NCBI GenBank assembly: GCA_044376085.1
Contig: JBILLN010000005.1
Coordinates: 1,125-65,124, forward strand
Source of the DNA: Bradymonadia bacterium
Lineage (GTDB): Bacteria > Myxococcota_A > Bradymonadia > UBA7976 > UBA1532
Reading direction: 5' to 3'
Length of the DNA: 64,000 bases
Shown here in pieces: positions 1-39,328 of this stretch. A program made the position numbers and the translations under genes. The notes beneath the pieces are model-generated. The model saw only the letters and a list, made by a program, of their open reading frames with translations, made no database searches and had not been told where the DNA came from. Numbering within the stretch: position 1 is the first letter of the stretch; each line of letters opens with the position of its first letter.

Positions 1-1
1 G

Positions 2-118
2 CTCCGGGAATCGGCCCGGCTCTTGAGATCAGCGCTGGCATTCGAACCGGACAACGACCATTTCCGTCACGCGCTCGACCACGTCACCTACCGCCTCTCC
101 GTCGGCGAGGGCGATTGA
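2..118 (+). CDS. Partial C-terminus of a hypothetical protein; the 5' end lies outside the window
   Basis: Frame 2 is open from the window edge to TGA at 116-118. It translates to LRESARLLRSALAFEPDNDHFRHALDHVTYRLSVGEGD. It is absent from the ORF track because there is no Met inside the window. Confidence 0.3.
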   Translation, partial: LRESARLLRSALAFEPDNDHFRHALDHVTYRLSVGEGD

Positions 119-137
119 CGACTGCGGATCGCGCGGG

Positions 138-908
138 TCAGAACCGACTCGTGTAACCGATCGCACCGCCGCCCGGCACCATGCCGACGTCGATGCGCCC
201 GGCACCGGCCGAGTCCGCGTCGGCACGCCACCACAGAAAAACCGCCGTTCCAGCGGCGGCCGCCGCGGCCCCGAAACAGACATCCGCCACGAGCGCCCGA
301 GACTCTGCCGTGTCCTTGTGCTTCTGGGCGTCCCGCCGAATCTCCGCATCCCGGGCCGCCTGAGCCTCGCTCAGCGCCTGGAAGCCCATGACAGCGCCGC
401 CCGCCAGCGCGGCCACACCGACCCCCGCGGCGATCCAGGGCCATGGCCCAGGCCCCCGCTCGATGGTTTCGACCTCGACGGGCGCTTCGTCCGCCACGAC
501 CGTCGGCGCCTGGGCGACCGGCTCAGCACCGAGTTGCCGGACCTTGTGGATTACGGCCGTTTCGTCGGCGGGCTGCGTGGCGAGATAGGCGCGGTACCAT
601 TCCACGGCGCCCGGAATGTCCCCCATGCGCTCCCGGCTGCGCGCGACGTTGAAGAGCATGTCGCGGTGACGGGTCAGCGTGTGCGCCTTCTGGAACGCCT
701 GGGCGGCCGCCTCGAAGCGTCCGGCCCGGTAGTGACCGAGGCCGTCGAAGAAGACCGACTCGGCCTCGTCCAGCGTCTTCTGGTCGAGGGCACCGATTTC
801 GCGAATGTCCGTGAGTTCGGCAACGCTCACCGGCGCGCCCGGCGCTGCCTGCGCCGCATGGGTCACCGTGAGAAGGATGCAGAGGCTCGTGGAGAGTCGT
901 GCTTTCAT
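138..908 (-). CDS. Secreted TPR-like protein with a C-terminal single-pass membrane anchor
   Basis: ATG at 908 gives MKARLSTSLCILLTVTHAAQA, a signal peptide. A TPR-like helical hairpin follows, then a C-terminal hydrophobic helix WIAAGVGVAALAGGAVMGF. The start overlaps the upstream stop by 4 nt (ATGA). The track ORF 138..1283 is a 5' over-extension. Confidence 0.7.
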   Translation of the reverse strand: MKARLSTSLCILLTVTHAAQAAPGAPVSVAELTDIREIGALDQKTLDEAESVFFDGLGHYRAGRFEAAAQAFQKAHTLTRHRDMLFNVARSRERMGDIPGAVEWYRAYLATQPADETAVIHKVRQLGAEPVAQAPTVVADEAPVEVETIERGPGPWPWIAAGVGVAALAGGAVMGFQALSEAQAARDAEIRRDAQKHKDTAESRALVADVCFGAAAAAAGTAVFLWWRADADSAGAGRIDVGMVPGGGAIGYTSRF

Positions 909-3900
909 TCGCAGGACTCCAGCACGCCACAGGTCGCGCCGGCCTGGCCGGAGCGCCGGCAGCACCCGAAGAGGGCAGAGACGCCGTCGGCGCCCGCGGA
1001 CGCTCCCTCCCCGCACGCTTCTCGCTGTCCGCCGGCGCCCCCGAGCCCGGGCGTTCCGGGGAAGAGGGCGTCGGGGGCCACCGCATCGGCGTCGAGCACG
1101 TTCCCTTCGTAGTCCTGGAACACGACACTCGACTCGGCCACCGTGTACAACTGCATGCTCACGGGATCGCGTCCTGGCGGGGCCACCCGGAACACGGGGA
1201 ACGACGGTCCGCCGGCGCCGCCGCCGGCGTGGCCACCGCAGCCACCCTTGCCGCCATTTCCGCCATCGCCTCCCGTCCCACACGTCGCGCAGTCCGCAGC
1301 GCGAAGCCCCTTCTGACCGAACGCGGCTCCGGCCTCTCCTTCGGCACCGCTTCCGCCCACGCCGCCGTCTCCGCCCGACGCGCTCCGAATGGTGCTGTTG
1401 ATGACCGTGACGTGCCCACCGACGATGAAGAGGCCGAACGAACCGCCTCCGCCGAAGGCGCCGTTACCGCCCTGCCCACCGCACCCGCCGGCACCACCGC
1501 CGCCACCACCACCGCCCTTGGTCGTCGGCAGACCGGGCCCGCGGCCGCCGCCGCCACCGCCACCACCGCCGCCGCCCGGCGAGCCGTTGCCCGCCCCCTG
1601 CGATTGACGAGGCTGCCAGACGAGCGGAATCGTCGTCCCATTGAACACCAGGTCGAGCACCATGCCCTCCGCGTTCGCCGGCCCGGAGTTCTCGCCATGG
1701 GCGCCCGCCTGGCCCGGCGTCCCTTGATTGCCCGGCTGGCCATCGGCCCCGGCCGGACCGCCGATGCCGTCCGGTGCGGCGGCCGCTTGCCCGTCCCCGC
1801 CGGCGGTGGCGGCTCCGTTCCCGGCAGCAGAGCCGGCACCGTTGCCGCCATCGCCGCCCTCGGTGTTCGCCGGGCAACCGGGATTCTGGCCGCCTGCACC
1901 GCCGACCCCGGGCTGATTGACGGCATCCGCGTTGGCACCGCGGGTCCCGGGCCGAGCGCTGACGCCAGAGCTGCCGTTGCCGCCGTCCCGTCCGGCCGCT
2001 CCCTGCCCGCCGCGGACCTCCACGTCGCGCAAAGTCAGGTGGGTCCCCGCGCTCAGGACATGGATGCCAATCGAGTTCTGCGATGCGTCGGCCGCGTTGC
2101 CGGCGGCCACGACGACGTTGTCCAGCAGCGTCGCGCGATTCAGGTTGCGGTAGCGGAGGACGATCGACGGACCCGTGATCCGCGTCTCGTTCTCTTCCTT
2201 CGCCGCGCGGCTCCAGGCGCGCGTCGCGATGTTGTAGCGGTAGCCGCCATGGATCCGCACGCCGGCCGGAATCTCGAGGGTCGCCGGCAGGTCATAGACA
2301 CCCGCGTCGAGGAGAATCGGTCGATTCAGCTGGTTGGCGGCCACGGAGACGGCGGCCGTCAACGTCCGATAGGGGTTGTCGATGCCGCCCGTGCCGGGTG
2401 GATCCTCGTTGGGATCGTGGCCCTCGACCGCCGACACGAAGATCGCGACGTCCTGGTCACCGTCGACGTTGTCGCAGTTCGAGTCGACGAACTCCGGATC
2501 GGGCTCGTCCGACTCGCCGCGGTTGCACTCGCAGCCGTTCTCCGTGACCCGGTCGTGGTTTTCGAAGTTCCCGGTGCACTCGTCGATTTCACACGCCCCG
2601 GCGACGCAGATCGAAACGGCGTTGGCGAGGGCGCAGCGGTTGCCGCAGACGCCGCAGTTCTCCACGTCGGAGAGCGTGTCGAAGTCCTCGTCCGCTTCGC
2701 CGTCGCAGTCGTTGTCGAGGTTGTCGCACACCTCGGGGACCGAGCCGCCGGCGACTGCTCCGCAGACGACATCATCGCGGGAGTCGGGCTTGCAGATGAG
2801 TTGACCGCTGCGTTCGCACAGGCCGATGCCGACCATGCAGGGCTGACCGATGGACTCGTACCCATTGTCGTTCTGCCCATCGCAGTCGCCGTCGATGGCA
2901 TCCCCACACAGCTCCCGTCCAGCCGCGCCGCCGGCGATCGGCTGACCTTGCGCATCTTCGCAGCGCGTCTGCTGTACGTTGGCCGGATCGCACTGTTCGG
3001 TCCCGGTGACCGCACACGCACCGACGCCCCCGCCGCACTCCTGGCCGATCGGGAACGTCTCGTCGATCTCTCCGTCGCAGTCGTTGTCCCGGCCGTCGCA
3101 GGCTTCTTCGCCTGGCGAGCCGGCCATCGCGCTGCAGGTGGTTCCCGTGCCGTCGGGCGAGCAGACCTGCGTGCTGACGCGCAGGCACTCACCGACACCG
3201 GCGCTGCACTCGATGCCGACCTCGAAGTCCTCGTCGGTTTCGCCGTCGCAGTCGTTGTCGCGCCCGTCACAGGTTTCCGCCGCCGTGCCGGGCTCGGTCA
3301 CCGGAGCTTCCGTCTCGGGGTCCAGACAGGGTCCCCAGACACCGCGCGTCTTGCCGGAATCGACCTGACAGACCTTGATCCCGGACGCGCAATCGCCACG
3401 CCCGGCGCCGCAGGCACGGGTCTCACCGGCGCCTGCGCCGTCGAGCCCGCAGCATTCGAGATCCTGGCCGTCGTCTTCGTCACCGTCGCAGTCGTTGTCG
3501 AGGCCGTCGCAAACCTCGACGCTCGGCTGCCCCGGTGTCGCGTTGCAGGCGACGCCCCCCCCCTGGCAGACGAAACGGCCCTGTCGCTGGCAGACGCCGT
3601 CCCCGACCGAACAGACGTCGCCGACCCGGTTGCCGTCGGCATCCTGGATGTTCTCGTCCTTCTCGCCGTCGCAGTCGTTGTCTTGGCCGTCGCAGGTCTC
3701 GAGCGTCCCCTCGATTCCCTCCTGCCAAGCGGTGTTGCAGGCACCGTCCTTCCCTTTGAAGTCCAGCGTGCCGCCCTCCGAGAAATTCACATCGGGCTGC
3801 TGCAGTTTGAACAGGCAGAACTGCTCCGCGCGGCAGTTGGTGTCACTCGCCCCGTCCGCAGACGGGGGGATCGAATTGGCACCGCCGCAGAGATCCGCCG

Positions 3901-4303
3901 TCGCGCCCTCCGAAAGGAACAGGAGTTCGGCGCGGATCTTGTGTCCGACGGGGAGGTCGAGCTCTGCCGTGGTGGGGTCCGTCGGGGCGATCTTCCCCTC
4001 GGACCACTTGAGCGGCACGTAGTAGGGCGGCGTCTCCGGGGCCTGCACGTCGACGATGATCAGACACGCGTTGACCGGCAGATCGGGCACCTTCTCGGTC
4101 AGCGTGGCCCGACAGGTCGACTTGAGATTGCCGCTCGCGGCGGTCACGTTGCCGCTGGCATCACCGAGGCAGGCCTTGAGATTGAAGTTCAGGTCGACCA
4201 GCGACACTTTCGTCTTCGTCTCTCCGCAGCCGGACACCGAGAAGGCGATCAGCGAGAGGAGGCCGAAAACTCGGGCATGGGATGAACGGATCGCGCCGCG
4301 CAT
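905..4303 (-). CDS. Giant lipoprotein (1133 aa): tandem MopE-like putative metal-binding Cys repeats (CDGxDNDCDGE), a right-handed beta-helix-like segment and a long Gly-rich low-complexity region
   Basis: ATG at 4303 gives MRGAIRSSHARVFGLLSLIAFSVSGC, a lipobox. The C-D-G-x-D-N-D-C-D-G-E motif occurs at least six times. The gene has a beta-helix-like NxxG/hydrophobic ladder and a GGGGGGGGGGG tract. The antisense ORF 899..4285 is a shadow. Confidence 0.8.
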   Translation of the reverse strand: MRGAIRSSHARVFGLLSLIAFSVSGCGETKTKVSLVDLNFNLKACLGDASGNVTAASGNLKSTCRATLTEKVPDLPVNACLIIVDVQAPETPPYYVPLKWSEGKIAPTDPTTAELDLPVGHKIRAELLFLSEGATADLCGGANSIPPSADGASDTNCRAEQFCLFKLQQPDVNFSEGGTLDFKGKDGACNTAWQEGIEGTLETCDGQDNDCDGEKDENIQDADGNRVGDVCSVGDGVCQRQGRFVCQGGGVACNATPGQPSVEVCDGLDNDCDGDEDDGQDLECCGLDGAGAGETRACGAGRGDCASGIKVCQVDSGKTRGVWGPCLDPETEAPVTEPGTAAETCDGRDNDCDGETDEDFEVGIECSAGVGECLRVSTQVCSPDGTGTTCSAMAGSPGEEACDGRDNDCDGEIDETFPIGQECGGGVGACAVTGTEQCDPANVQQTRCEDAQGQPIAGGAAGRELCGDAIDGDCDGQNDNGYESIGQPCMVGIGLCERSGQLICKPDSRDDVVCGAVAGGSVPEVCDNLDNDCDGEADEDFDTLSDVENCGVCGNRCALANAVSICVAGACEIDECTGNFENHDRVTENGCECNRGESDEPDPEFVDSNCDNVDGDQDVAIFVSAVEGHDPNEDPPGTGGIDNPYRTLTAAVSVAANQLNRPILLDAGVYDLPATLEIPAGVRIHGGYRYNIATRAWSRAAKEENETRITGPSIVLRYRNLNRATLLDNVVVAAGNAADASQNSIGIHVLSAGTHLTLRDVEVRGGQGAAGRDGGNGSSGVSARPGTRGANADAVNQPGVGGAGGQNPGCPANTEGGDGGNGAGSAAGNGAATAGGDGQAAAAPDGIGGPAGADGQPGNQGTPGQAGAHGENSGPANAEGMVLDLVFNGTTIPLVWQPRQSQGAGNGSPGGGGGGGGGGGRGPGLPTTKGGGGGGGGAGGCGGQGGNGAFGGGGSFGLFIVGGHVTVINSTIRSASGGDGGVGGSGAEGEAGAAFGQKGLRAADCATCGTGGDGGNGGKGGCGGHAGGGAGGPSFPVFRVAPPGRDPVSMQLYTVAESSVVFQDYEGNVLDADAVAPDALFPGTPGLGGAGGQREACGEGASAGADGVSALFGCCRRSGQAGATCGVLESCE
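2690..3700 (-). repeat. Five or more dispersed near-identical ~15-25 nt DNA repeats (plus strand gtcgcagtcgttgtc) that encode the DNDCDG core of the MopE-like repeats
   Basis: Copies at approximately 2702-2716, 3074-3088, 3245-3259, 3485-3499 and 3668-3682. A variant copy lies near 2880. Confidence 0.7.
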
Positions 4304-4308
4304 GGAAC

Positions 4309-5466
4309 TCACTCGACCTTGAAAAGCGTGGGCGCCCATCGATCGACGACGGGCTGGGCGTCGGCCGGCTTCACGGCCTGCCCGAAGCGGGCCTGCCAGA
4401 ACTGCTCGAGGACGGCGCGATGAGCATCTGCGCCGACCGGAACCGGGTACACGTCCTGTTCGATCGCGCTGTCACGGTAGGTGATGAGCGTCAGCTGCGC
4501 CTGTCCGGCGGTGCCTGGTTCGAGGTATCCGGCGACGAGCACGCGAACACCGAAACGCTCCGCCGCGTCGAACATCACCTCGGTCAGGTAGTCCTCGCTC
4601 GACGCGTCCGGCCCCGTGAAGACAATCTCCGCGAGCGGTTCGTACTCTTCCTTCCGGTTCTTGGCCTCGGTCAGTTTCGCTCGGACGGACTCGCTGGCGC
4701 CGTTCTTCAGGTTCACCAACGTCCCCCAACGGGCAAACCCCGCCTTGCGGACCTCGACGAGATGCGGCCCGGCGGGCAGGAAGGGGTCGACGAACGCCAC
4801 GTCCCGACCGACGACACCCGTCGGTCGGTCGTCCACGTAGACGTGGGCGCCGTCGACCTCGGCGGTGACCCTGAGTTCGGCCGTTCCGGCGATGGTCGTC
4901 GTGCCGCACTTGTCCGCGAGGGGCTCGAACTGCTCGATGGGACCCGCGCTGCCGGCGAGATTGCGGGTCAGCGCCACGTAGGCGCAGTAGGCCTCCCGGG
5001 CCGGCTCCTCCTGCCCCCCGGCCAGCCGGGCGAGGTAGTAGTAGAAGAAGATGCCGCGGAGGAGACCGTGGTCCGTCGCGTACGGAATCCCCTTATTGTA
5101 GAAGCGCTCCGCTCGGAACAACTGCTCCTGCGCTTCGTCGGCGTCTCCCTTTTCCAGCGCCCGCTGCGCGTCGTTGAAGTGGCGGCGAGCGGTCTCGAGA
5201 TCGGCTTTGCTGAGCCGTCCGACGTCGTACCGGAACTCGATGGACTTGGCCCGCGGAGCAGTGGGCTTCAACGTGTGCGCGTGATCGAACATGTTCCGGA
5301 GGTCACGTTCGATGCGCGCGGCGGTGACCGCATCCGTCCCTCGACGAGCGAAGACGAGCGCGGTCGCGCTTTCCTCCGCGGCCATCGCATCCGGCGCGAA
5401 GCCACCGATCGACCAGACGATTGCGGCAACGCACAGCCGCGCGAATCGGACGGACAGGCGTGTCAC
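4309..5466 (-). CDS. Secreted PEGA-domain protein
   Basis: GTG at 5466 gives VTRLSVRFARLCVAAIVWSIGGFAPDAMA, a signal peptide. A PEGA-like block (GAHVYVDDRPTGVV...GPHLVEVRKAGF) is present. GTGA overlaps the upstream stop. The track ORF 4309..6720 over-extends through the TolB-like gene in another frame. Confidence 0.65.
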   Translation of the reverse strand: MTRLSVRFARLCVAAIVWSIGGFAPDAMAAEESATALVFARRGTDAVTAARIERDLRNMFDHAHTLKPTAPRAKSIEFRYDVGRLSKADLETARRHFNDAQRALEKGDADEAQEQLFRAERFYNKGIPYATDHGLLRGIFFYYYLARLAGGQEEPAREAYCAYVALTRNLAGSAGPIEQFEPLADKCGTTTIAGTAELRVTAEVDGAHVYVDDRPTGVVGRDVAFVDPFLPAGPHLVEVRKAGFARWGTLVNLKNGASESVRAKLTEAKNRKEEYEPLAEIVFTGPDASSEDYLTEVMFDAAERFGVRVLVAGYLEPGTAGQAQLTLITYRDSAIEQDVYPVPVGADAHRAVLEQFWQARFGQAVKPADAQPVVDRWAPTLFKVE

Positions 5467-6602
5467 GGGGCGTCCGCCTTCAGATCGGCCAGCGTCAGGG
5501 TGACCAGGTACAGGCGTTCCCAGGTCTTGTCGGTCGACCCCTTCTGCCCGAGCGCCTTGAAGGCCAGCATGACCCGGTCGCCCTTGCCGAACGCCGAGAC
5601 ATCTCCGTTGAGCTGGGTACCGGTGTCGATGGTGCCGTGCGCCGAACCATCGGCCCGGACCCACTTGACCGGGTTGTCCGCCTTGAAGTCCTGCTGAACG
5701 AAGAAGACCGACGCCGAGTCGGGGGCCCAGGCCGGTCCGCCCGACTCGTCGACCACGACGTTGCTGGCGAGCTTCTTGGCGTTCTGGCCGGTCGAGTCGA
5801 CGACCCAGAGATCGAAGACCTTGTCGGACCGGGTGTCCTTGTTGGCGTAGAACGCGATGAGGCGTCCGTCCGGGGACCAGCTCGGCCGAATCTCGTCGCC
5901 CGGCCACTCCGTCACCATGCGGAGGGTCTCCTGCGGCTTGCCGGTGTCCTGGATGACGCCGATGTCCTGCCCTTTGCTGCCGCTCTGGGCACGGGTAAAC
6001 ATCAGGGTCCGGCCGGTCGGGGCGAACTTCGGGTGGAACTCCGTCGCCGTCGGCCAGAACGTCAGCCGAATGGGCGTCGCGTCTCCCTGCAGATCGATCG
6101 CGTAGATATCGCCCGAATCCTTCTGCTGGGAAGCGTAGGCGATGTAACGGCCATCCTTGGACCACGAGGGCTGCCCGTCGTTCCCCGGGTTCTTCGTCAG
6201 CCAGTCGCCGTCCGCGAAGAGGTCGAAGTTCTTGTTCGCGCCGCGGCTGGAGAAGACGTACGGCCGGCTCAGCAGCTTCATGTTCGGCGCCCACTCGAAC
6301 TCGACCACCGGCGGCTTGCGACCGCCGAGGAGATCCGCCGCCTGAGCCCGACCGGCCGAGACCTCGGTCGCATCGCCATCTCGTCGACCATCGGCGGTCA
6401 GGCGCAGAATCCACGTCTCGCGCGTGTCCTTGCTGGGGTCGTAGACCTCGTAGGCGATCTGACTCCCGTCCGGGGCCCAGCGCGGCGCCTGGCAGTGGGC
6501 CGACGGGCGGTCGGCGATCTGCTTGGGCGTGCTGACCTCGGCGCCGGCCATGGCCGGCGCGAGCACGAGAGAGCTGATGAAAAGCGTCTGGGACTTCGTC
6601 AC
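5463..6602 (-). CDS. TolB-like periplasmic beta-propeller protein (PD40/WD40-like repeats)
   Basis: Repeated SWSPDGRLIAF, SWSKDGRYIAY and WAPDGSQIAY motifs. The N-terminus has a signal peptide, TKSQTLFISSLVLAPAMA. The proposed GTG start at 6602 makes a 4-nt GTGA overlap with the upstream stop. The start is uncertain. Confidence 0.65.
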   Translation of the reverse strand: MTKSQTLFISSLVLAPAMAGAEVSTPKQIADRPSAHCQAPRWAPDGSQIAYEVYDPSKDTRETWILRLTADGRRDGDATEVSAGRAQAADLLGGRKPPVVEFEWAPNMKLLSRPYVFSSRGANKNFDLFADGDWLTKNPGNDGQPSWSKDGRYIAYASQQKDSGDIYAIDLQGDATPIRLTFWPTATEFHPKFAPTGRTLMFTRAQSGSKGQDIGVIQDTGKPQETLRMVTEWPGDEIRPSWSPDGRLIAFYANKDTRSDKVFDLWVVDSTGQNAKKLASNVVVDESGGPAWAPDSASVFFVQQDFKADNPVKWVRADGSAHGTIDTGTQLNGDVSAFGKGDRVMLAFKALGQKGSTDKTWERLYLVTLTLADLKADAP

Positions 6603-7393
6603 GGGCGTTCCCTCGCGGCCTGAAGGACGACACTGGCGCGCTGATCGACCTTCGTCTGGTCGTCCTCGGCCAACAGGAAAAAGGCGGCGACACCCGCCGC
6701 GATCGCCACACCACCGGCAATCCCGGCGTACAGCCATACGTTGCTTCCGCCGTCGCTCTCCCGCTTCACGACCTGGAGGAAGAGCTCCACGGTCGGTTGC
6801 GGCTCCCCCTGGGCGAGCGCGAAGGGCACGTTGTTGGCGGTGTAGTCTCCGTATGGAAGATAGATGGTCGTCGGGACCTGGACGTCCGTCGACCGAAAGC
6901 GCTCACGAATGGAGAGGAAGGTCTGCTTCTTCTCCTTGTTGATGATGCCCGTCTTGGCTTCGAGGAAGACGCGGCCCTCCGTATTGGTCTCGCCGGCCGC
7001 GGCCTTGATGGTCACGCCACCGTAGAGGCCCTGCATCTCCTGCTGCCACTCCTCGACCATCTTCTGCTTCCGGGCGTCTTCGCCGGCGAGTGCCTTGGCC
7101 TTCTCGGCCATCGCGAAGGCCGTCTCGAGGACGAGCAGTTTGTAGGCGGCCCGGCCGCGATAGTAGACCGTCGTGAAGTCCGCATCGCCGCCCTTCATCT
7201 TGTAGGCCCGGTCGAGCTGACTCTTGGACTGCGGGAAGCGGTCCTTCTTGAAGTAGAGGATGCCCTGCTCGCGAACCTCCTCGAAGCTGGAGGCCGCGGG
7301 GGCCTCCTCGGCGGCCTCCTGCGCCCGGGCCGGAAGCGCCGGCAGCAAGGCGCTGCCCACACTCGCGACGGTCGCCAGGTAAAAACCTCTCAT
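6599..7393 (-). CDS. Secreted protein with a C-terminal single-pass anchor, similar in architecture to the protein at 138..908
   Basis: ATG at 7393 gives MRGFYLATVASVGSALLPALPARAQE, a signal peptide. The C-terminus has a hydrophobic helix WLYAGIAGGVAIAAGVAAFFLL. ATGA overlaps the DppF-like stop. Confidence 0.6.
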   Translation of the reverse strand: MRGFYLATVASVGSALLPALPARAQEAAEEAPAASSFEEVREQGILYFKKDRFPQSKSQLDRAYKMKGGDADFTTVYYRGRAAYKLLVLETAFAMAEKAKALAGEDARKQKMVEEWQQEMQGLYGGVTIKAAAGETNTEGRVFLEAKTGIINKEKKQTFLSIRERFRSTDVQVPTTIYLPYGDYTANNVPFALAQGEPQPTVELFLQVVKRESDGGSNVWLYAGIAGGVAIAAGVAAFFLLAEDDQTKVDQRASVVLQAARERP

Positions 7394-8418
7394 CCGGTGG
7401 CCTCCTTCGCCTCGGCGGCAAAACACGCGACCCAATGCGTCGGTCCCAGGGAAACCGGACGCGGTCGCTCGTTCGAACAACGGCTCAGAATGCCCAATCG
7501 GGCGCCGAGTTGGCAATCGGCGGCGTGCACGCATCCGCCAGTGGTCAGCCCGCTGCGCTCGGCCGGGTCGAACGGTCGCGGCGCTGCGGCCGCGGACTCG
7601 CCGCCGGTCGAATGGCGCCCCTCCTCGAGAAGGTCCGCCGCCCGCATGAGCTTGTGGGTGTAGGGGTGATGGAACGCCGCGTGCCCCAGCTCGGCAGCGG
7701 GCACTTCCTCGATGATCCGCCCCTTCAACATGACCAGCACCCGCTCGCTGATCTTCCGGACCAGACCGAGGTCGTGGCTGATCAGCAGATAGGCGAGATC
7801 GGGGTCTTTCAGGGTCTTGAGAAGCTCCACCATCTGCTGCTTGATCGCAGCGTCGAGGCCGGACGTCGGTTCATCGGCGACGATGAGCTTCGGCCGAGTC
7901 GCGAGAATGCGAGCGAGTCCGACCCGCCGACGCTCGCCGCCGGACAGACTCGCGGGGCGCTGCTCGGCCCGCGCCGAGAGACCGACGCGACCGAGAAGCT
8001 CCATGGCCTGTGCCGTCCGCCCGTTTGCGTCGAGCTCGGGCCGATGGAGCCGCAGCGACTCGTCCATCATCTCCCGGACCGTCATCTTCGGGTGCAGGTT
8101 GGCGCTCTGGTTCTGGAAGACCATCTGGAATTCGCGGCGGAGCGCGCGCAGCGCCTGGCTCGAAGCACGAAAGACGTCCTGACCATCGAACAGGACCGAG
8201 CCGGCATCCAGCGTCGTCAAGCGCAAGAGCACCTTGCCGAGCGTCGTCTTGCCACTGCCGGACTCCCCGATCAGCGCGACGACCTCGCCCTTGAAAATGT
8301 CGACGTCAACCCCGTCGATGGCGCGGTTCAGCGTCTTGCGCCGAAGGAGCCCCTCGCCGCCGAAGGTCTTCACGAGGCCACGTCCGACCACGAGGGGGAT
8401 GCGCTGCTCGACGGTCAC
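7390..8418 (-). CDS. Oligopeptide/dipeptide ABC transporter ATP-binding protein (DppF/OppF-like)
   Basis: Walker [10 protein letters not shown], signature LSGGERRR and Walker B LIVADEPTSGLD are present. GTG at 8418 overlaps the DppD-like stop as GTGA. The track ORF is over-extended at the 5' end. Confidence 0.85.
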   Translation of the reverse strand: MTVEQRIPLVVGRGLVKTFGGEGLLRRKTLNRAIDGVDVDIFKGEVVALIGESGSGKTTLGKVLLRLTTLDAGSVLFDGQDVFRASSQALRALRREFQMVFQNQSANLHPKMTVREMMDESLRLHRPELDANGRTAQAMELLGRVGLSARAEQRPASLSGGERRRVGLARILATRPKLIVADEPTSGLDAAIKQQMVELLKTLKDPDLAYLLISHDLGLVRKISERVLVMLKGRIIEEVPAAELGHAAFHHPYTHKLMRAADLLEEGRHSTGGESAAAAPRPFDPAERSGLTTGGCVHAADCQLGARLGILSRCSNERPRPVSLGPTHWVACFAAEAKEATG

Positions 8419-9320
8419 GACGCCACCTCCCCGACCGGCAGATCGGCGGCCGCGAGCAGCGTCGCGGTATAGGGGTGGCGTCGGCCCTGCCCGTTCTTGA
8501 GGTCCTCCGCGGAGACGACCTCGACGATGCGACCGTGCCGCATCACGATGATCTCCCGCGCCAAGAACAACACCTCGCGAATGTCGTGGGAGATGTACAT
8601 CATCGCCCGTCGCTCGGCCGCCAGGAGCTCCTGAAAGAGTTCGACGATCTCCTGCCTCACGGTCGTGTCGAGGCCTGTCGTCGGCTCGTCGGCGATGAGC
8701 AGCCGCGGCTGGCGCGCGAGCGCGATGGCGATCATGGCCCGCTGGCACATGCCCCCGGAGAGCTCGTGGGCATAACTCGCGTAGACCCGCGCCGGATCGT
8801 GGAGCTTGACCCGTGCCAGCCAGTCGAGTGACCGACCGCGGACCTCCGCGCGGCTTTGCCCCGGCGATGCCAACCGGACGGATTCGTCGAGCTGCGCACC
8901 GATGGTCATCAGCGGGTCGAGAGACTGCCGCGGATTCTGAAAGACCGCGGTCATCACCCGCCCCCAGAGCGGACGCCACCGACGCTGCACGAGACGATTC
9001 CACCGCCGATCGTCCTTTCGCACCGGACCGCGACTCGGCGTCGAAACGACCGACGGCAGGTCCGCGAGCAGGGACTCGCGCGAGTCGTCCAGCGTGAGGT
9101 CGATGCGGCCGGAAATCACGCCTGGACGGCCCGGTACGAGGCCGAGCACCGCCAGCGTCGAGAGGGTCTTCCCGCTTCCCGACTCACCCAGAATGCCGAG
9201 GACCTCCCCCTGCTGGACGGAGAAGCTCACCCCGTCGACGACCCGTCGACGGCCCGCACTGGTGTCGAACTCGATGACGAGGTCCGCCACCTCGAGCATG
9301 GGTGGGAGATGCTGCGTCAT
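8415..9320 (-). CDS. Oligopeptide/dipeptide ABC transporter ATP-binding protein (DppD/OppD-like)
   Basis: The protein starts [18 protein letters not shown]. Walker [17 protein letters not shown] and [12 protein letters not shown] are present. ATG at 9320 overlaps the permease stop as ATGA. Confidence 0.85.
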
Positions 9321-10135
9321 CGAATGGCCTCTTCGCCACGACGCGCCGCCAGGTTTCCGAACGCCAGGAATCCCGAGATCGTCAGCACGATGGCCGCCGC
9401 GGGCACCAGCCAGGGCCACGCCGAATCCGGCGGAAGGGAGCGCACCTGCGCGACCATGTTGCCCCACGACGGATCCGGCTCCTGAACGCCGTAGTCCCCC
9501 AGGTAGGAGAGACCGGTTTCCACGAAAAGCACGTACCCGAACACGAACGCGGCCTGTCGGACCATGATCGGCCAGCACTGCAACCACAGGATGTGATAGA
9601 CGATCACCCAGACAGGCCTGAATCCATGCGCGATGTGTGCGAGGATGTAGTCCTCGGAGCCGAGCGCTTCGACCTTTCGCCGAATGACGGTCGCGACCGT
9701 GGGAATGAAGAGCACCCCGGCGACGAAGGCGATCAGCGTCACGGACGGATTCCGGATCGTGCAGACCAGAATGATGAAGACGAGCCGGGGCAGCGTATCC
9801 AGGAGTTGGAGCGCACCGGCGATGACGGCGCGAACCGGTCCGGTCGCGTAACCGGCCACGGCGCCGGCCAACGCGCCAATGAAAACGGCGATCGCGGCGG
9901 CCATGAGACCGGGCAGAAAGAAGGCTTCCGTCCCCTTCACGAGACGCATCGCCACGTCCCGGCCCTGCTCGTCCGTGCCCAGGACATGCGCGCCGGAGGG
10001 GACCTCCAGGACGCGGTCGTACGAGACCGCATCCGCCGGTTCGTACGGGATGAACGGCGCGATGCTGCCGAGCAGCACGACCACCAGGACGATCGAGCCG
10101 CTCAACCAGAGACCGAGGCGCGAGAAGCTACCCAT
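9317..10135 (-). CDS. ABC transporter permease (DppC/OppC-like)
   Basis: Multi-pass hydrophobic protein of about 272 aa with a BPD-transporter-like core. It overlaps the DppB-like gene by 8 nt. Confidence 0.85.
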   Translation of the reverse strand: MGSFSRLGLWLSGSIVLVVVLLGSIAPFIPYEPADAVSYDRVLEVPSGAHVLGTDEQGRDVAMRLVKGTEAFFLPGLMAAAIAVFIGALAGAVAGYATGPVRAVIAGALQLLDTLPRLVFIILVCTIRNPSVTLIAFVAGVLFIPTVATVIRRKVEALGSEDYILAHIAHGFRPVWVIVYHILWLQCWPIMVRQAAFVFGYVLFVETGLSYLGDYGVQEPDPSWGNMVAQVRSLPPDSAWPWLVPAAAIVLTISGFLAFGNLAARRGEEAIR

Positions 10136-11120
10136 TCCGGGCGACCTCGCGAGGGTCGACAGCGGCGCGGACGACGTCCGCGACGAGGTTCATCACGATG
10201 ATGGCGAACGTGAAGAGAACGCTGAGCCCGACGACGACCGGGAAATCGCGCTGCTTCGAGGCCTCGAGCAGCAGGTAGCCGGCGCCGTCCAGGGTGAAGA
10301 CGTACTCGACGATGACGACGCCCCCCAGGACGACCGGCAGGCGTGCGGCGAATGCCGAGACGAACGGTACCACCAGGTTGCGAAACGTATGCGGAAGCGT
10401 CGAAGCCCCCTTCGACCGGATGGCCGCGATGAACTGCGCATTCCGGACGGCCAGAATCTCGGCGCGAACGGTATTGAGCATGTCCATGAAGAGTCCGTCG
10501 CCGGCGACGAGCACCAAACCGGCAAAGAAATAGGGCATCACGGACTCCGAATAGATGGGGATCGGGTACCACGGAGGGGTCTCGTACCCTGCGTCTTCGA
10601 CGAACCGCCGAACGAACGCATTCATCCCCTGCGAGAAGAAGATGGCGGCCACGAAGGCCGGCGCAGCCGTCAGAAAATACAGGAGTCCCGTCAACCACTG
10701 TTGCCGCGGCGACGGCTCCCCGAGTGCCACCGCGAGCGCCGTGGCGAGGAAGAGGCACAGGAGGAGCGCCCCGCCGCTCAGCAGCAGCGTCAGCTTGAAC
10801 GCCGGCCGTGCGATGGTCATCACCTGCTCGCCCGGAGCGAAGACCAGCGACTCACCGAAGTCCCCCGTCGCCGACCGACCCAACCAGGTCACGTACCCCG
10901 CGACCGGTGGCTGGTCGAGACCGAAGTCCGCCGCGAGCTTCTCTTTGACCTCAGGCGGCGTCCCCATCGGCGTGATGGCGTCAATGGCGTCACCGGGCGC
11001 CGACCGGATCGTGAAGTAGATCAGGAACGACGCGCCGACGAGCAACAAGAGACCCCCCGCCAGTCGACGCCCGGCCATGAGGACCAGGCCGAGCAGTCGG
11101 TTCAAGGGGAGAGCTCCCAC
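10128..11120 (-). CDS. ABC transporter permease (DppB/OppB-like)
   Basis: The N-terminus NRLLGLVL...FLIYFTIRSAPGDA resembles the DppB N-terminus. The protein has six or more predicted TM segments. It overlaps the binding-protein gene by 19 nt. Confidence 0.8.
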   Translation of the reverse strand: MGALPLNRLLGLVLMAGRRLAGGLLLLVGASFLIYFTIRSAPGDAIDAITPMGTPPEVKEKLAADFGLDQPPVAGYVTWLGRSATGDFGESLVFAPGEQVMTIARPAFKLTLLLSGGALLLCLFLATALAVALGEPSPRQQWLTGLLYFLTAAPAFVAAIFFSQGMNAFVRRFVEDAGYETPPWYPIPIYSESVMPYFFAGLVLVAGDGLFMDMLNTVRAEILAVRNAQFIAAIRSKGASTLPHTFRNLVVPFVSAFAARLPVVLGGVVIVEYVFTLDGAGYLLLEASKQRDFPVVVGLSVLFTFAIIVMNLVADVVRAAVDPREVARNG

Positions 11121-12658
11121 TCCGGGAACGAGGTGAAGTAGTAGAAGGGCTGGATATAGACGTTCCGGACCTTCTTGCTGATGCCCGAGTAGATGTCGAG
11201 GGACCAGAGGAAGTAGTACGGGAGGTCCTGGGCGAGCAGCGCGTGGAGCTGCTTCATCATTTCCTTGTACTTCTTGTAGTCCTTGGTCGCCTTGGCGGTG
11301 TCGAGCAGCGTGTCGACGTCCGCATTATTGTATCCGATGAAGTTCATCGGTCCCTTGCTGTGGAACAGCGGGTAGACGTCCTCGACCTCTTCGAACGACC
11401 AGATGTTCAGCGTCAGGTCGAACTTGCGACGGGTGAAGACCTGGTCGCGATAGCGGGCGTGGTCGACGTAGGTCGGCCGGGTCGTCACGCCGATCTTCTT
11501 GAGCTGCGCCTGAATGCCGAGGAAGAGAGCCTGGTTGCTGGCGAGTTCCTTGTCCATGACGAACTCGAAGTCGAGCTTGAGCTTGCCCTTCATCCGGACA
11601 TCGCCCTTCTTCTTCCACCCGGCGTCTTCGAGCAGCTGATTCGCCCGTTCGAGATCGACCGCGGCCTTCTCCACCTGGAAGTTGTAGAACGGGCTCGACT
11701 CGGTGAACGGCCCCGTCAAGATGTCGCCCCGACCCAGGTGAGCCTCCAGCAGCTCTTCGCGGTCGATCGCGAGGCCGATGGCCTGCCGCACGGGACGCTC
11801 GGCCAACGCCTTGTTCTCGTGGCTGTACGCCATGTACCACCAGGAGACCGTGTGGTACGGCTCGAGCACGACGGAGTCGCTGTTCTCGAAGAGGGCGATG
11901 TTCTTCGGCGGCAGGAAGATGACCGCCTGCACACCGGCCTTCACGCCCGAGTACTGGAGGAGGTTGATCTGGGCCGACTTGTCCGGCGTGTGCTGCATCT
12001 GCACTTCGCCGACCTTGGCCTGGTTCCAGTAGTCCGGATTCTGCTCGAGCGCGATGCTGCGCAGGCTGAACCCCCCCTTCTTCAGACGGAACGGCCCGGT
12101 CCCGACCGGTTCGCGCGCGAACTTGTCCTTGCGGCTGATCGCCGTGCCGGGGAAGGCGTGCTTCGGGATGATCTTCAGCGAGATGAACCGCTTCTCGGCC
12201 TCGGGAATCGGGCGCTCGAACGCGATGTGGACGCCGTACTGCCCCTCTGCGGTCACGTCACGGATGAAGTTGAACTTGCTCTTCGCGTTGAAGATCGTTT
12301 TCGGATCCTGTGCGGCCCGAATCGTGAAGACGACGTCCTCCGCGGTGAACGGCTCTCCGTCGTGCCACTTCACGCCTTCACGCAAGACGAAGCGAATGCC
12401 GCCCTGGTCGTCATCGACCTTCCACGAGGTCGCCAGACCCTTGTCGACGTCGCCCCGCTTGTTCTGGAAGACGAGCGAGTCGAAGATGAGTTCGACCATC
12501 CGGACGGCGCTCATGTCCTCCGCGAAGAACGGCAGCAGCGACGCCGGCCGGGTGTCCTCCGGGTAGTGGAACGTCTGCTGTGCGTTGGCGACCGTCGATC
12601 CGGGACCGAAGAACACGCCGAGGGCAATCGCGATGCGACCGAGAGTGCGCTGGAACAT
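11102..12658 (-). CDS. Periplasmic peptide-binding protein, SBP family 5 (DppA/OppA-like)
   Basis: 518 aa with a signal peptide MFQRTLGRIAIALGVFFGPGSTVANA. The length and conserved blocks (GVKWHDGEPFTAEDVVFT, GTGPFRL) are typical of family-5 binding proteins. Confidence 0.85.
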   Translation of the reverse strand: MFQRTLGRIAIALGVFFGPGSTVANAQQTFHYPEDTRPASLLPFFAEDMSAVRMVELIFDSLVFQNKRGDVDKGLATSWKVDDDQGGIRFVLREGVKWHDGEPFTAEDVVFTIRAAQDPKTIFNAKSKFNFIRDVTAEGQYGVHIAFERPIPEAEKRFISLKIIPKHAFPGTAISRKDKFAREPVGTGPFRLKKGGFSLRSIALEQNPDYWNQAKVGEVQMQHTPDKSAQINLLQYSGVKAGVQAVIFLPPKNIALFENSDSVVLEPYHTVSWWYMAYSHENKALAERPVRQAIGLAIDREELLEAHLGRGDILTGPFTESSPFYNFQVEKAAVDLERANQLLEDAGWKKKGDVRMKGKLKLDFEFVMDKELASNQALFLGIQAQLKKIGVTTRPTYVDHARYRDQVFTRRKFDLTLNIWSFEEVEDVYPLFHSKGPMNFIGYNNADVDTLLDTAKATKDYKKYKEMMKQLHALLAQDLPYYFLWSLDIYSGISKKVRNVYIQPFYYFTSFPEWELSP

Positions 12659-12685
12659 GGGACGAAGGACTCCTTTGGAACTCGA

Positions 12686-14257
12686 TCACTGGCCCGACGC
12701 GGCGCCGCCTTCCTGATCCATCGCACGGATGGTCAGAAGGTCACGCAGCATGTCCGCCGCAGCCGCGACCGCCGGAAAACGCTCGGCGAGGCGGCTGAAG
12801 TATTTGAGTGCGACGCGCGGTCGCCCGATGCGAACGTTTTCTCTGGCAGCCCGCGCCAGGGCGGCGACGCCGTTGCGCGGAGAGGGCGCGAACGCCGCGC
12901 TCTTGTCCTCGGCGTTCTCCAGATGCTTCAGGGCGACCTCGGGTGCTCCGCCGGACGAGGCCGCCTCGGCGAAGCGTCGCTCCACGGCATCCGCGTACCG
13001 CTCGACGAGGTTGAGCGCCGCCACGTCGGCCGCGCCCTTCGCTTCGGCCCCCAGGGCATCGATCTCCGCCCCGACGGTGCGGGCCAGCAACGCGCGGTCT
13101 TCGGGGAACGCTCCGGCATCGAGAGCGCCGCCGGTGGCCGTGGACGCCCAGGTCTTCAGGACCCGGTGGCCGATCGTGTCCGTCGGGAGTCCGGCCACAT
13201 CGGCCTTCGCCCCTTCGGCGTCCCCGGAAGCATGTCGAGCCCGAGCGAGCAACGCCCGCGCCTCCAGCGCGAGGTCCGCCCCCGAGAGCGCGTCCGTCAG
13301 GACGAGGTCGGCGAGCGGGGCCTCCGCCGGTGGTGCCGCGACGAGGGGTTCGAGTACGGTCTTCGCCTCGGCCGACCGACCGAGAAGCAGCAGGGCCCGC
13401 GCCTTGTGCAAGGCGGCCCAGCCCGGCGCCGGCCCGAGCGCTTCGAGCGCCCGCGTGGCGTGAACGCGCACGCCGAGATCGGCCAGTGCCGGGTCACGGA
13501 AGGAAACGGCGCCCTCACCCGGTCCGACGACGACATCCGGGGCGTTGGGCGGGATCTTCTCGAAGCGTGCGACGGCCTCCGTGGAGCGTCCGGCGGCGGT
13601 CAGGGCCGCGACGGCGAGTCGCGCCCCGTACTCCGGGGTCGCCCCGGGCGGGAGCGGTGCGTCCAGGCCTTCGACCTTGCCGGCCAGCAGCGCTGCGAGG
13701 GGACCCGTCGCCCCCGCTTTGGAGGCGGCGACGAGCGCGGCCAGCGGGCCGTCGGTCGCGAGGGCGCTCAGGTCCGGTGGACGGCCCGCACGGGTCGCCA
13801 GTCGTGCGCGCATCCACACGCGCCACGCGGCCCCTTCCGCGCCACCGGCGTCCGTCTTGGCTTCGGCGAGGCGTTCGGTGAGATCGGCCACGACCATCGC
13901 GACCGCGTCGTGCGCGGCCGCCAATTCGAGCGCGGCACGGGCTGCCCCCGTGCGCACCGGGTCGCCGGGCGGGGCCGTGCGAACCCCGGCCTCGAACGCT
14001 TCCAACGCGCCGGCCGGGTCGGACGTGAAGAGCTTGCCCCACCCCGGATTGGACTGGGCGAGCGTACCCAAAGCCGTCGCGTCCTTCGCCACGGCCAGCA
14101 CCCAGCTCTCGCGAACCCGGGCGCGGTCTGCGGACACGTCCACCGCAGGGGCGGAGGGCGCGCCACCCGGTGGACGTGCGGCCCGCTCCGTGCAGCCCGG
14201 ACCGACACCGACCAAGAGAGCGGCGGTCAGAGCGACGCGCCGGACGGAAGGCTTCAT
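12686..14257 (-). CDS. Ala-rich helical (TPR-like) lipoprotein
   Basis: ATG at 14257 gives MKPSVRRVALTAALLVGVGPGC, a lipobox. The composition is highly Ala/Leu-rich and helical-repeat-like. The upstream gene lies 5 nt away. The track ORF has a 5' over-extension. Confidence 0.6.
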   Translation of the reverse strand: MKPSVRRVALTAALLVGVGPGCTERAARPPGGAPSAPAVDVSADRARVRESWVLAVAKDATALGTLAQSNPGWGKLFTSDPAGALEAFEAGVRTAPPGDPVRTGAARAALELAAAHDAVAMVVADLTERLAEAKTDAGGAEGAAWRVWMRARLATRAGRPPDLSALATDGPLAALVAASKAGATGPLAALLAGKVEGLDAPLPPGATPEYGARLAVAALTAAGRSTEAVARFEKIPPNAPDVVVGPGEGAVSFRDPALADLGVRVHATRALEALGPAPGWAALHKARALLLLGRSAEAKTVLEPLVAAPPAEAPLADLVLTDALSGADLALEARALLARARHASGDAEGAKADVAGLPTDTIGHRVLKTWASTATGGALDAGAFPEDRALLARTVGAEIDALGAEAKGAADVAALNLVERYADAVERRFAEAASSGGAPEVALKHLENAEDKSAAFAPSPRNGVAALARAARENVRIGRPRVALKYFSRLAERFPAVAAAADMLRDLLTIRAMDQEGGAASGQ

Positions 14258-14262
14258 CCCGC

Positions 14263-15972: not shown

Positions 15973-15991
15973 GGCTTGGCTGCCCGTCCCG

Positions 15992-16423
15992 TCAATTGCC
16001 GATGACCGGCGTGGAGGTCGTATCGGCTTCGAATTCCTTCTCCTGCGTCGGATCCGGGGCCGTCTCGTTGATGTCCGGTGTACGAGGCGCGAGCGTGATG
16101 TCCGGGACCTTGGTCGGTCCGCCCTCGATGGTGACCTCGTACGCGGCGTCTTCGAAGCCGAACTTGCGGACCTTGATCTTGTAGACGCCGGCGGGAATCG
16201 GCTCCGTCTCTCCGGACTCGTTCAGCCGCTGGCGCAGGGTGAAGAAACCACGGTTATTGGTCATGACGACGTCGGTCTCGGGCTCGGTGAAGATCTCGGC
16301 CTTCGAGACTGCGCTGCCCTTCTGGTCGAGAACACGTCCGGTCAGCGACACGGGCTGCGAGCCGCACGCGACGAGCGTCAGGAGGGCGGCCCAGAGGCCG
16401 GTCACGCGGAGAATGGCGTTCAT
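15992..16423 (-). CDS. Small lipoprotein with a carboxypeptidase-regulatory-like (CarbopepD_reg/PEGA-like) beta-sandwich
   Basis: MNAILRVTGLWAALLTLVACGS is a lipobox. LTGRVLDQKGSAVSKAEIF...GVYKIKVRKFGF is typical of the fold. Confidence 0.6.
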   Translation of the reverse strand: MNAILRVTGLWAALLTLVACGSQPVSLTGRVLDQKGSAVSKAEIFTEPETDVVMTNNRGFFTLRQRLNESGETEPIPAGVYKIKVRKFGFEDAAYEVTIEGGPTKVPDITLAPRTPDINETAPDPTQEKEFEADTTSTPVIGN

Positions 16424-16433
16424 GGCGGCGCTC

Positions 16434-16904
16434 CTACTGCTTCATCCGCTGACCGATGACGCTCATCGCGTACTCCACGGTCAGGTCGCGGGGGTCGAGA
16501 TCACGGAGGCTGGCGAGGTGGTCGTAGGCATCCGTCAACTTGCCGTCGATCGACGCCTGGACCGCCTTGCCGAGCAGGTCCTGCCGGAGTCGGGCAATCT
16601 CGGGAGCACCATTCGCCTGGGCGATGCGGTTTCCGATCTCCTGCAGCAGGTCCGGTGCATCGTTCTGAAGCTTGCGGCCCGTGATGAGCAGGTAGGCGCG
16701 CGCGTACTTCTTCAGCCCTTGCGAAAGCATGTCTGCCTTCTTGTCGGCACGCGCTTTCGCCGCGTCGTCGAGCAGCGCGCGGCCCTCGTCGGCCATTGCC
16801 TTGGCATCTTCGACGGGTCCGGCGAAGGCCGGCACCGCGAAGAACGCGAGGCCGAGGACGAGCGCGCAGCGAACGGGCACTGAACGTGGAGAGCGCAAAC
16901 GCAT
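16434..16904 (-). CDS. Small secreted helical protein
   Basis: Signal peptide MRLRSPRSVPVRCALVLGLAFFAVPAFA. It lies 10 nt upstream of the next gene. Confidence 0.5.
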   Translation of the reverse strand: MRLRSPRSVPVRCALVLGLAFFAVPAFAGPVEDAKAMADEGRALLDDAAKARADKKADMLSQGLKKYARAYLLITGRKLQNDAPDLLQEIGNRIAQANGAPEIARLRQDLLGKAVQASIDGKLTDAYDHLASLRDLDPRDLTVEYAMSVIGQRMKQ

Positions 16905-16972
16905 CGAAACTCCTTGGAAACCGACAGGCGACGTTAATTCACGGCCCCCGGAGAGTCAACGACCCCACCGGC

Positions 16973-19231: not shown

Positions 19232-19330
19232 GCAGCTCCTGTGAGGACCGGGTCGGATATTAACCCAGCGCGCCGGGAGTGCAAACCAGGAGTGCGGCCC
19301 TGCCCCCTGGCCGATCGCCCTTCGGACGCG

Positions 19331-19358
19331 TTGACCCGCTCCGCTCACCTTGTATAGA
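19331..19358 (+). promoter_or_regulatory. Sigma70-like promoter candidate: TTGACC-16 nt-TATAGA with TG at -15/-14
   Basis: An AT-rich island in GC-rich DNA, about 40 nt upstream of the ATG at 19397 (MKIPS...). It sits in the divergent intergenic region between the kinase and the FCGBP-like lipoprotein. Confidence 0.35.
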
Positions 19359-19396
19359 TCGACACATACAGAAACCTTTCGGAATGTTCCCGCTCC

Positions 19397-21448: not shown

Positions 21449-21489
21449 CGCCGTCCGCGTGGCCAAACGTCCCTCACTTCGGAAGGAGC

Positions 21490-27101: not shown

Positions 27102-27186
27102 GGATTCTCCTCTGAACGGACGGCCAGAGATACCCACCCGGACCGTGAACGTCAACATTGGACGCGTTCTGATATGATGCCCGGCC

Positions 27187-39319: not shown

Positions 39320-39328
39320 GGAGTCCCG

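Follow-up and report, generated by a model that had tools for sequence, protein, structure and literature searches.

Why would the genes of a five-component ATP-binding cassette (ABC) importer run without a break into those of a set of periplasmic and membrane-anchored proteins? An importer that depends on a binding protein is commonly regarded as complete with its five parts, and the question is raised by a minus-strand gene cluster in a 64,000-nucleotide (nt) stretch of DNA from a Bradymonadia bacterium (assembly GCA_044376085.1, contig JBILLN010000005.1, positions 1,125 to 65,124; hereafter the window). A first-pass annotation, made from the sequence of the window, had described this cluster as a nine-gene train joining a Dpp-type importer to five envelope proteins. 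Here we find a minus-strand unit of 15 genes at 138-19231 (~19 kb) that also encodes a transmembrane Ser/Thr kinase, and we regard one lineage-specific envelope operon as its best explanation.

A 15-gene block of importer and envelope genes

The start and stop positions of all ten open reading frames (ORFs) in 138-12658 (minus strand) were confirmed with no internal stops, and every coordinate of the first-pass annotation for ORFs, starts, stops, overlaps and the 5-nt gap was reproduced. Neighbouring genes share 4-nt ATGA or GTGA overlaps at 905-908, 5463-5466, 6599-6602, 7390-7393, 8415-8418 and 9317-9320, with the remaining junctions being an 8-nt overlap (10128-10135), a 19-nt overlap (11102-11120) and a 5-nt gap (4304-4308), giving a spacing in transcription order of -19, -8, five of -4, +5 and -4 nt. 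The continuity of the train therefore stands but its count does not, as eight overlaps and one gap make nine junctions and hence ten genes, five for the ABC importer and five for envelope proteins. Nor does the train start at 12658: five more minus-strand genes (a kinase, three lipoproteins and a small secreted protein) lie 5' of the substrate-binding protein (SBP) gene, with gaps of 27, 5, 19, 10 and 68 nt, and reach 19231. The giant lipoprotein, given earlier as 1133 amino acids (aa), has 1132. In order of transcription the block and the gene that converges on it are:

16973-19231, minus strand: Hanks-type Ser/Thr kinase, 752 aa, the first gene (Pfam Pkinase 155 bits, PEGA 47.4 bits)
16434-16904, minus strand: s2, small secreted protein, 156 aa, with a signal peptide and no Pfam match (counterparts of 151-167 aa in loci L035 and L036)
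15992-16423, minus strand: s1, small lipoprotein, 143 aa, with lipobox LVAC and a CarboxypepD_reg (transthyretin-like) beta-sandwich (Pfam 39.6 bits)
14263-15972, minus strand: u2, lipoprotein, 569 aa, with N-terminal beta domain(s), a ~200-aa Pro/Ala-rich linker and a C-terminal helical TPR-like domain (18 loci)
12686-14257, minus strand: u1, Ala-rich all-helical lipoprotein, 523 aa, with weak TPR matches (18 loci; homologues in L031 and L032)
11102-12658, minus strand: g1, family-5 periplasmic SBP, 518 aa, with a signal peptide (Pfam SBP_bac_5 224.7 bits against a cut-off of 32.4)
10128-11120, minus strand: g2, OppB/NikB-like permease, 330 aa (BPD_transp_1 59.8 bits; Opp4B, Opp2B and NikB under their cut-offs)
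9317-10135, minus strand: g3, OppC/NikC-like permease, 272 aa (BPD_transp_1 26.9 bits against a cut-off of 26.4; Opp4C 160 bits)
8415-9320, minus strand: g4, DppD/NikD-like ATPase, 301 aa (ABC_tran 84 bits; Walker A, signature and Walker B in the translation)
7390-8418, minus strand: g5, DppF/NikE-like ATPase, 342 aa, with a Cys-rich C-terminal extension (ABC_tran 118 bits; weak oligo_HPY)
6599-7393, minus strand: g6, core protein with a signal peptide, a TPR domain (residues 37-123), a beta domain (124-204), a C-terminal transmembrane (TM) anchor (223-241) and a short cytoplasmic tail
5463-6602, minus strand: g7, core secreted PD40 beta-propeller, 379 aa, without a TolB N-terminal domain (PD40 96 bits)
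4309-5466, minus strand: g8, secreted protein, 385 aa, combining a split alpha/beta domain with a TPR-like helical bundle and a PEGA beta-sandwich, its C-terminal tail being flexible yet invariant (PT.F.VE)
905-4303, minus strand: g9, giant lipoprotein, 1132 aa, an optional member (Cu-binding_MopE 69 bits in five stretches)
138-908, minus strand: g10, the last gene, with a signal peptide, a TPR domain and two hydrophobic segments (residues 158-176 and 206-224; TPR_2, TPR_16 and TM scan)
1-117, plus strand: 3' end of a converging DnaJ-domain gene, whose translation equals the C-terminus of a 315-aa ORF at 15351-16298 of locus L004

We place the end of the block at 138 because the converging DnaJ-like gene stops at ~117, while the neighbour 5' of the kinase is an IgGFc_binding gene that lies divergently on the other strand. 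The GC content along this stretch is 66-75%, and the train ORFs passing our composition filter have third-codon-position GC (GC3) values of 0.83-0.91, as expected of real genes because the genome is 68% GC. Independent public gene calls include two of the train products, of 264 and 385 aa, at the same lengths (100% identity, 100% coverage), and all ten non-ABC proteins of the block carry a signal peptide or lipobox or are bitopic. Scanning 1-20000 for promoters gave one promoter-like site against 0.7 expected, and for terminators 16 weak terminator-like sites against 9.9 +/- 2.9 expected; these scans are uninformative in a 68% GC genome because the sites within the train fall inside coding sequences.

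The block is conserved in uncultured Myxococcota and its core persists in divergent clusters

Using tblastn, we found colinear gene order in 24/24 related loci, all from metagenome-assembled genomes (MAGs) of uncultured Myxococcota, with a PEGA protein (g8) 43-88% identical. These 24 non-redundant loci come from a scan of one genome per GTDB species (23 full-length, one repeating the L002 contig) together with earlier look-ups. The genes g4-g8 are present in all of them, and most other absences coincide with contig ends; g9, by comparison, is truly missing from four deep-branching members (L001, L023, L024 and L025). In 22 of the 24 loci g6 has at its disposal an in-frame start codon that shares 4 nt with the stop of the ATPase gene, with spacings of -1 and -8 in the other two, and by this reading of the junctions translational coupling between ATPase and g6 is conserved. 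Because the same order occurs in all 24 loci and the tight junctions recur, we take the block to be more than chance. The upstream half, from kinase to u1, was likewise confirmed in L035 and L036.

Searching with the SBP returned orthologues of at least 53% identity and then a second tier at 35-45%, from which we examined five divergent clusters (L030-L034; SBP 36-45% identical). Four of these (L031-L034) encode a small CarboxypepD_reg-type lipoprotein, one or two large unknown proteins, an SBP, two permeases, two ATPases, an unknown protein of 300-420 aa and a PD40 propeller corresponding to g7, while L030 shows the upstream part only, its contig ending just after the SBP gene. Comparison with phmmer ties proteins of the divergent clusters to s1, u2, u1, g6, g7 and, in L032, g8, defining a reduced core of the small lipoprotein, u2- and u1-like proteins, SBP, two permeases, two ATPases, an anchored TPR protein and a PD40 propeller. 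The core association is not background synteny, because the flanks of the divergent clusters differ (purD/purH, an ABC-F gene). The earlier proposal that importer and envelope proteins form one conserved unit thus passed a gene-neighbourhood check in the 24 loci and, as a reduced core, in the divergent clusters.

The system is also rare and restricted. A profile of the g6 family gathered 164 clusters at E<=1e-10 among 1.84 billion representatives, and in every g6-bearing locus examined g6 lies directly 3' of the second ATPase gene. Homologues of g8 fall into 87 clusters, nearly all of ~330-420 aa and all from metagenomes or MAGs labelled Myxococcota, Myxococcales or Bradymonadia. Source MAGs include those from the water column of Lake Baikal and Tara Oceans and from activated sludge.

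The importer is a canonical member of the Opp/Dpp/Nik family

The Pfam search bore out the domains assigned in the first-pass annotation (SBP_bac_5, two BPD_transp_1, two ABC_tran, PD40, PEGA and Cu-binding_MopE, with TPR on g10). In the translations of both g4 and g5 the Walker A (GESGSGKT), signature (LSGG) and Walker B (DEPT.GLD) motifs are intact, and the permeases g2 and g3 align end to end with OppB/C- and NikB/C-type models, with the motifs KG.S...RN...P and HIL....P visible. The oligo_HPY domain scored 16.7 bits against a cut-off of 27.1 in g5 and was not detected by Pfam in g4. A ~50-residue Arg/Trp-rich insertion lies inside the ABC_tran domain of g4, where residues 29-215 match a 137-position profile.

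None of the NCBIfam equivalog models for Dpp, Opp, Nik, Gsi, Cnt, Sap or Yej passes for the transporter. The best NCBIfam score of g1 was 147.7 bits for Opp5A_nikA, against a cut-off of 600, with 79.5 bits for DppA (cut-off 1005) and 68.3 bits for OppA (cut-off 947). In a search of the PDB its closest solved structures were 8efz, AppA, Lmo0135 and NikZ, each at <=150 bits, a mix of peptide, nickel and uncharacterised binders in which AppA and Lmo0135 bind oligopeptides, and the murein-peptide binder MppA was also among its relatives. We accordingly ruled out an assignment as Dpp, Opp, Nik or Cnt, since no equivalog model passes and the PDB neighbours are mixed. The earlier label 'Dpp-type' is therefore too specific, and judged from its sequence the transporter is a canonical, catalytically intact importer of this family (PepT) that is unclaimed by curated subfamily models.

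Variation among the relatives touches both ATPases and SBP. In L001 a gene fusion joins g4 and g5 in a single two-domain ATPase of 668 aa (6010-8016), an arrangement known from GsiA/YejF, and junction analysis suggests a g4/g5 fusion in L023 (3307-5163). The SBP gene is tandem-duplicated in L002 and L031; such duplication happens in nutrient importers that broaden their substrate range.

The downstream envelope proteins and the question of TolB

The first gene after the ATPases, g6, has no Pfam match, and its predicted fold consists of a TPR and a beta domain followed by a TM helix. The propeller protein g7 had been called TolB-like, which is true of its PD40 repeats only; such PD40 propellers also match the N-terminal models of Tricorn and DPP-IV, whose propellers are peptide-gating. 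As TolB itself g7 was rejected, with 90 bits against a cut-off of 343 for TIGR02800 and only residues 135-259 aligned, and no match to the tolQ, tolR, tolA, pal or cpoB families was found among the 15 genes.

The PEGA domain of g8 scored 23.8 bits against a gathering score of 20.8, and all 32 family members match it at E<=10 (Pfam; best 4e-10). Its predicted structure has a predicted local distance difference test (pLDDT) score of 89.5 and a transthyretin-like PEGA fold, with the last 15 residues (4309-4353, minus strand) predicted to be flexible at pLDDT 55-62. Within this tail P379, T380 and F382 are invariant in the 32 sequences, with V384 and E385 nearly so, and it looks like a short docking motif for a partner, which in such a model could be a TPR domain or the propeller. 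A C-terminal docking motif common to the divergent clusters was looked for and none was seen there.

Using Foldseek with g8, which has no propeller, we obtained ~15 TolB chains (E 0.01-0.04, 70-120 columns, probability 0.84-0.99). With hhalign the probability of g8 against TolB-N was 4%, using an approximate E. coli TolB-N query, while Pfam TolB_N gave no match in the 32 g8 family members and a PDB profile search was likewise without TolB-N. An alpha/beta domain in g8 (residues 33-66 and 285-365) possibly resembling TolB-N (TolB residues ~22-165) is thus a weak lead from structural modelling.

The giant lipoprotein g9 contains six Cys-rich D.DCDG (MopE-type) repeats and 61 Cys residues, as well as a Gly-rich region (36% Gly across residues 800-1060, with Gly runs of 11 and 8). 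Together with g8 and g10 it is a clade-specific addition to the core. The TPR matches of the block proteins as a whole include LpoP, YbgF/CpoB, NlpI, BamD and LapB. Domain searches detected no outer-membrane beta-barrel, secretin, TonB/TolQR-type motor or secretion component among the 15 proteins, and the 'trans-envelope or surface complex' proposed earlier is not supported.

A transmembrane kinase and lipoproteins precede the importer

In the kinase protein, the catalytic domain (HRDLKPDN) lies in the cytoplasm and is connected through a long disordered linker and a single TM helix (residues 574-592) to periplasmic PEGA domain(s), and the same gene occupies the equivalent position in L035 and L036. 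Homologues of s1 stand at the equivalent position in L030-L033, L035 and L036, with a Pfam CarboxypepD_reg protein there in L034. In two of the divergent clusters (L033 5356-8202, L034 5058-8228) the first gene encodes a kinase-like domain without HRD, a TM helix, a Ser/Thr/Pro-rich linker and the C-terminal domain of u2; because this (pseudo)kinase-TM protein is fused to a domain of u2, we consider the kinase to be tied to the scaffold proteins.

Divergent from the kinase lie an IgGFc_binding-domain lipoprotein (19397-21448, plus strand) and a 1026-aa TIG-repeat protein (21445-24525, plus strand). The pair also adjoins the kinase in L035, and the IgGFc_binding gene does so in L036; these proteins may share a functional neighbourhood with the block.

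Lipid A-type genes follow the block in the main clade

In the main clade, genes for an MsbA-like ABC_membrane exporter, a DUF374 protein, an RpoD-like sigma factor and LpxK-family and lipid-A-acyltransferase-family proteins lie 3' of the block, and in several members they come directly after g10 with gaps of -13 to ~60 nt. NCBIfam scores were 99-200 bits against 602 for MsbA_lipidA, 41 against 92 for lpxK and 68 against 248 for the lauroyl acyltransferase, so that these neighbours are placed in their families at the Pfam level only. We rejected the exporter as a bona fide MsbA and call it MsbA-like only, its scores being under the equivalog cut-off. In L004, the closest relative of the window, the 315-aa opposite-strand J-domain (DnaJ-like) gene (15351-16298, minus strand) separates g10 from the exporter; several other relatives have a ~1-kb gap at this place, and in deeper-branching relatives g10 abuts the exporter directly. 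This lipid A gene neighbourhood is absent from the divergent clusters L031-L034. The block sits in a housekeeping chromosomal region with pheST and surE.

What the block may do

The reading that we favour, to which we give a probability of roughly 40%, is that the block encodes a periplasmic apparatus dedicated to capturing and importing a peptide-like ligand and monitored by the kinase. Here g6, anchored in the inner membrane beside the permeases, would join g7 and the lipid-tethered TPR and beta-sandwich proteins s1, u2 and u1 in a scaffold that surrounds the importer in the periplasm, and this scaffold would capture a peptide-like ligand and present it to the SBP. Candidate ligands are oligopeptides and peptides released from cell walls or prey, with a metal-chelate less probable; the transporter would move the ligand into the cytoplasm by ATP hydrolysis, and the transmembrane Ser/Thr kinase would report occupancy or assembly to the cell via its periplasmic PEGA domain. 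Metal scavenging, suggested earlier, is weakened in that its sole basis, and the only plausibly surface-exposed part, was g9 with its MopE repeats, which four members lack. The physical association of the parts, the class of ligand and the role of the kinase are inferred. In favour of the reading we count the tight junctions, the colinearity in 24/24 loci, the 4-nt ATPase/g6 overlap available in 22 of them, the core kept at SBP identities of 36-45%, the fusion of kinase and u2, the export or membrane signals of all ten non-ABC proteins, the intact ATPase motifs, the SBP duplications, the oligopeptide-binding relatives of the SBP and the matches to peptide-gating propellers.

Several points weigh against this proposal. 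We know of no PepT importer that needs such accessory proteins, and no peptidase is encoded in the block, which leaves a 'peptide processing' step without an enzyme. NCBIfam puts the SBP and permeases marginally nearer to nickel/metallophore systems (Opp5A/NikA, Opp1/2) than to DppA/OppA, with all of these scores far under the cut-offs. In addition, the lipid A-type neighbours downstream hint, if no more, at envelope biogenesis over nutrition, and co-transcription of the block is deduced from gene spacing alone.

An envelope-maintenance machine, Tol-Pal-like or linked to lipopolysaccharide (LPS), is a somewhat unlikely alternative in which the propeller g7, a TolB-N-like alpha/beta domain in g8 and the TPR proteins g6, g10, u1 and u2 would form a trans-periplasmic scaffold for outer-membrane or peptidoglycan homeostasis; the importer would then take back a product of envelope turnover, for instance murein peptides, with the kinase linking the process to growth. 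CpoB, LapB, BamD and LpoA/P are natural comparisons for the TPR proteins here, and the TPR matches to LpoP, YbgF/CpoB, NlpI, BamD and LapB agree with it, as do the MsbA-like, DUF374, sigma factor, LpxK- and acyltransferase-family genes after the block (often overlapping or <60 nt away), the TolB chains among the Foldseek matches of g8, MppA among the PDB relatives of the SBP and the housekeeping region with pheST and surE. However, components of the TolQ/R/A, Pal/OmpA-like, Lpt and Bam kinds are all missing from the block, g7 does not pass the TolB model, and the TolB-N likeness of g8 went unseen by hhalign, Pfam and the PDB profile search. Furthermore, the exporter, LpxK and LpxL matches are all under NCBIfam cut-offs, and the lipid A neighbours are absent in L031-L034 and interrupted in L004, with the window holding the 3' end of the same interrupting gene. 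A bolder form, which we hold to be very unlikely, would make the block an ATP-driven, Tol-Pal-like outer-membrane homeostasis machine specific to a group of uncultured Myxococcota, in which the type I ABC importer is an integral and obligate subunit of a 'split-TolB'-like scaffold (g7, g8, g6 and g10) that is wired to the kinase and was originally transcribed together with genes for lipid A export.

It is also unlikely that the block merely brings together independent modules under a shared promoter, that is, an ordinary peptide or nickel importer amid unrelated envelope genes, kept by operon inertia in a slowly rearranging region. Every ABC component does look canonical, and the flanks beyond the block are syntenic in the main clade too (IgGFc_binding and TIG on one side; MsbA-like, DUF374 and sigma factor genes on the other), which indicates high general synteny. 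Yet the core recurs with different flanks (purD/purH, ABC-F) and persists at 36-45% SBP identity, where background synteny is lost, the 4-nt ATPase/g6 overlap is kept in 22/24 loci, and the g6 family, rare at 164 clusters, always directly follows the second ATPase in the g6-bearing loci examined. Most improbable to us is a surface adhesion, motility or predation apparatus like the TPR-rich Agl-Glt gliding complex, with g9 displayed on the cell surface. Many periplasmic TPR proteins, the giant g9, the Pro-rich and potentially periplasm-spanning linkers of u2 and the kinase, and the conserved divergent IgGFc_binding and TIG-repeat surface proteins would suit such a role, but g9 is dispensable in the four deep-branching members, the energy-converting part is a solute importer, outer-membrane barrel, TonB/TolQR-type motor and secretion component are all missing, and the MAGs include those of lake and ocean water columns (Lake Baikal, Tara Oceans) and activated sludge. 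The capture-and-import apparatus remains the reading that we prefer.

Comparison with known systems

The block shares with Opp/Dpp/Nik systems (PepT, TC 3.A.1.5) the same five components (a family-5 SBP, two permeases and two ATPases with intact motifs) in the order SBP-B-C-D-F, together with the Cys-rich C-terminal extension of the ATPase and, in some members, tandem SBP duplications. Unlike in those systems, the transporter genes are embedded among genes for extracytoplasmic non-transport proteins and a kinase, an arrangement that persists between deeply diverged clusters. Tol-Pal (TolB, CpoB/YbgF) offers a parallel in its periplasmic PD40 propeller, signal-peptide TPR proteins and, possibly, the TolB-N-like domain in g8; the block, by contrast, lacks the TolQRA motor and Pal and has the propeller and the putative N-like domain on separate proteins. 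Operons that pair an outer-membrane receptor with an ABC importer (fecABCDE, fhu, btu) follow the same principle, an importer co-transcribed with the envelope proteins that feed it, but here there is no TonB-dependent receptor or beta-barrel and the accessories are TPR, propeller and beta-sandwich scaffolds.

The Agl-Glt system of Myxococcus xanthus, from the same phylum, likewise groups lipoproteins with numerous TPR proteins, periplasmic or anchored in a membrane, in a single conserved cluster. The motor of Glt is a proton channel of the TolQR type, and the system has outer-membrane barrels, whereas the block has neither and instead encodes a solute importer and a Hanks kinase; a general Pfam scan gave no match to the MotA/ExbB, TonB_C or OMP families in the 15 proteins of the block. 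PASTA-type kinases next to cell-wall genes are also bitopic Hanks kinases with an external sensor, encoded with envelope genes. Unlike theirs, the sensor of the block's kinase is PEGA (transthyretin-like), and in the divergent clusters the protein lacks HRD and has the u2 C-domain as its external part.

A full-text literature search found no published account of this cluster, and the earlier statement that no textbook dpp/opp operon carries such a set agrees with that search, in which none was described. Of the 18 papers in which the term PEGA domain occurs, only the one of 2004 identifying these repeats centres on it, judged by titles and abstracts, and every non-transporter protein that is named by a source is 'hypothetical' or bears a domain label only. 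The transporter is of a known kind, and its fixed partnership with the accessory set and a kinase is new.

Other features of the window

Elsewhere in the window, a 3842-aa ORF (46158-57686, minus strand; GC3 0.87) consists almost entirely of TPR-type repeats, with same-strand genes for a phosphatidylserine decarboxylase and a methyltransferase downstream. Its length and composition are reminiscent of AgmK/GltI, a giant TPR protein of the gliding machinery in Myxococcus. Three ORFs with a strong coding signal (470, 677 and 327 aa; GC3 0.83-0.87) in 37907-41362 (plus strand) and 26394-27377 (minus strand) have no Pfam match at E<=1e-4.

Significance

In these organisms the same periplasmic scaffold proteins and transmembrane kinase accompany the importer even between clusters whose SBPs are only ~36-45% identical. 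The g6, g8, u1, u2 and s2 families, now 'hypothetical', receive here their first annotations and folds in abundant uncultured aquatic Myxococcota, and the block offers a concrete, testable unit for structural and biochemical study. If its parts assemble, it would represent either a new means of supplying an ABC importer in diderms that dispenses with a receptor in the outer membrane, or else an importer that serves envelope homeostasis.

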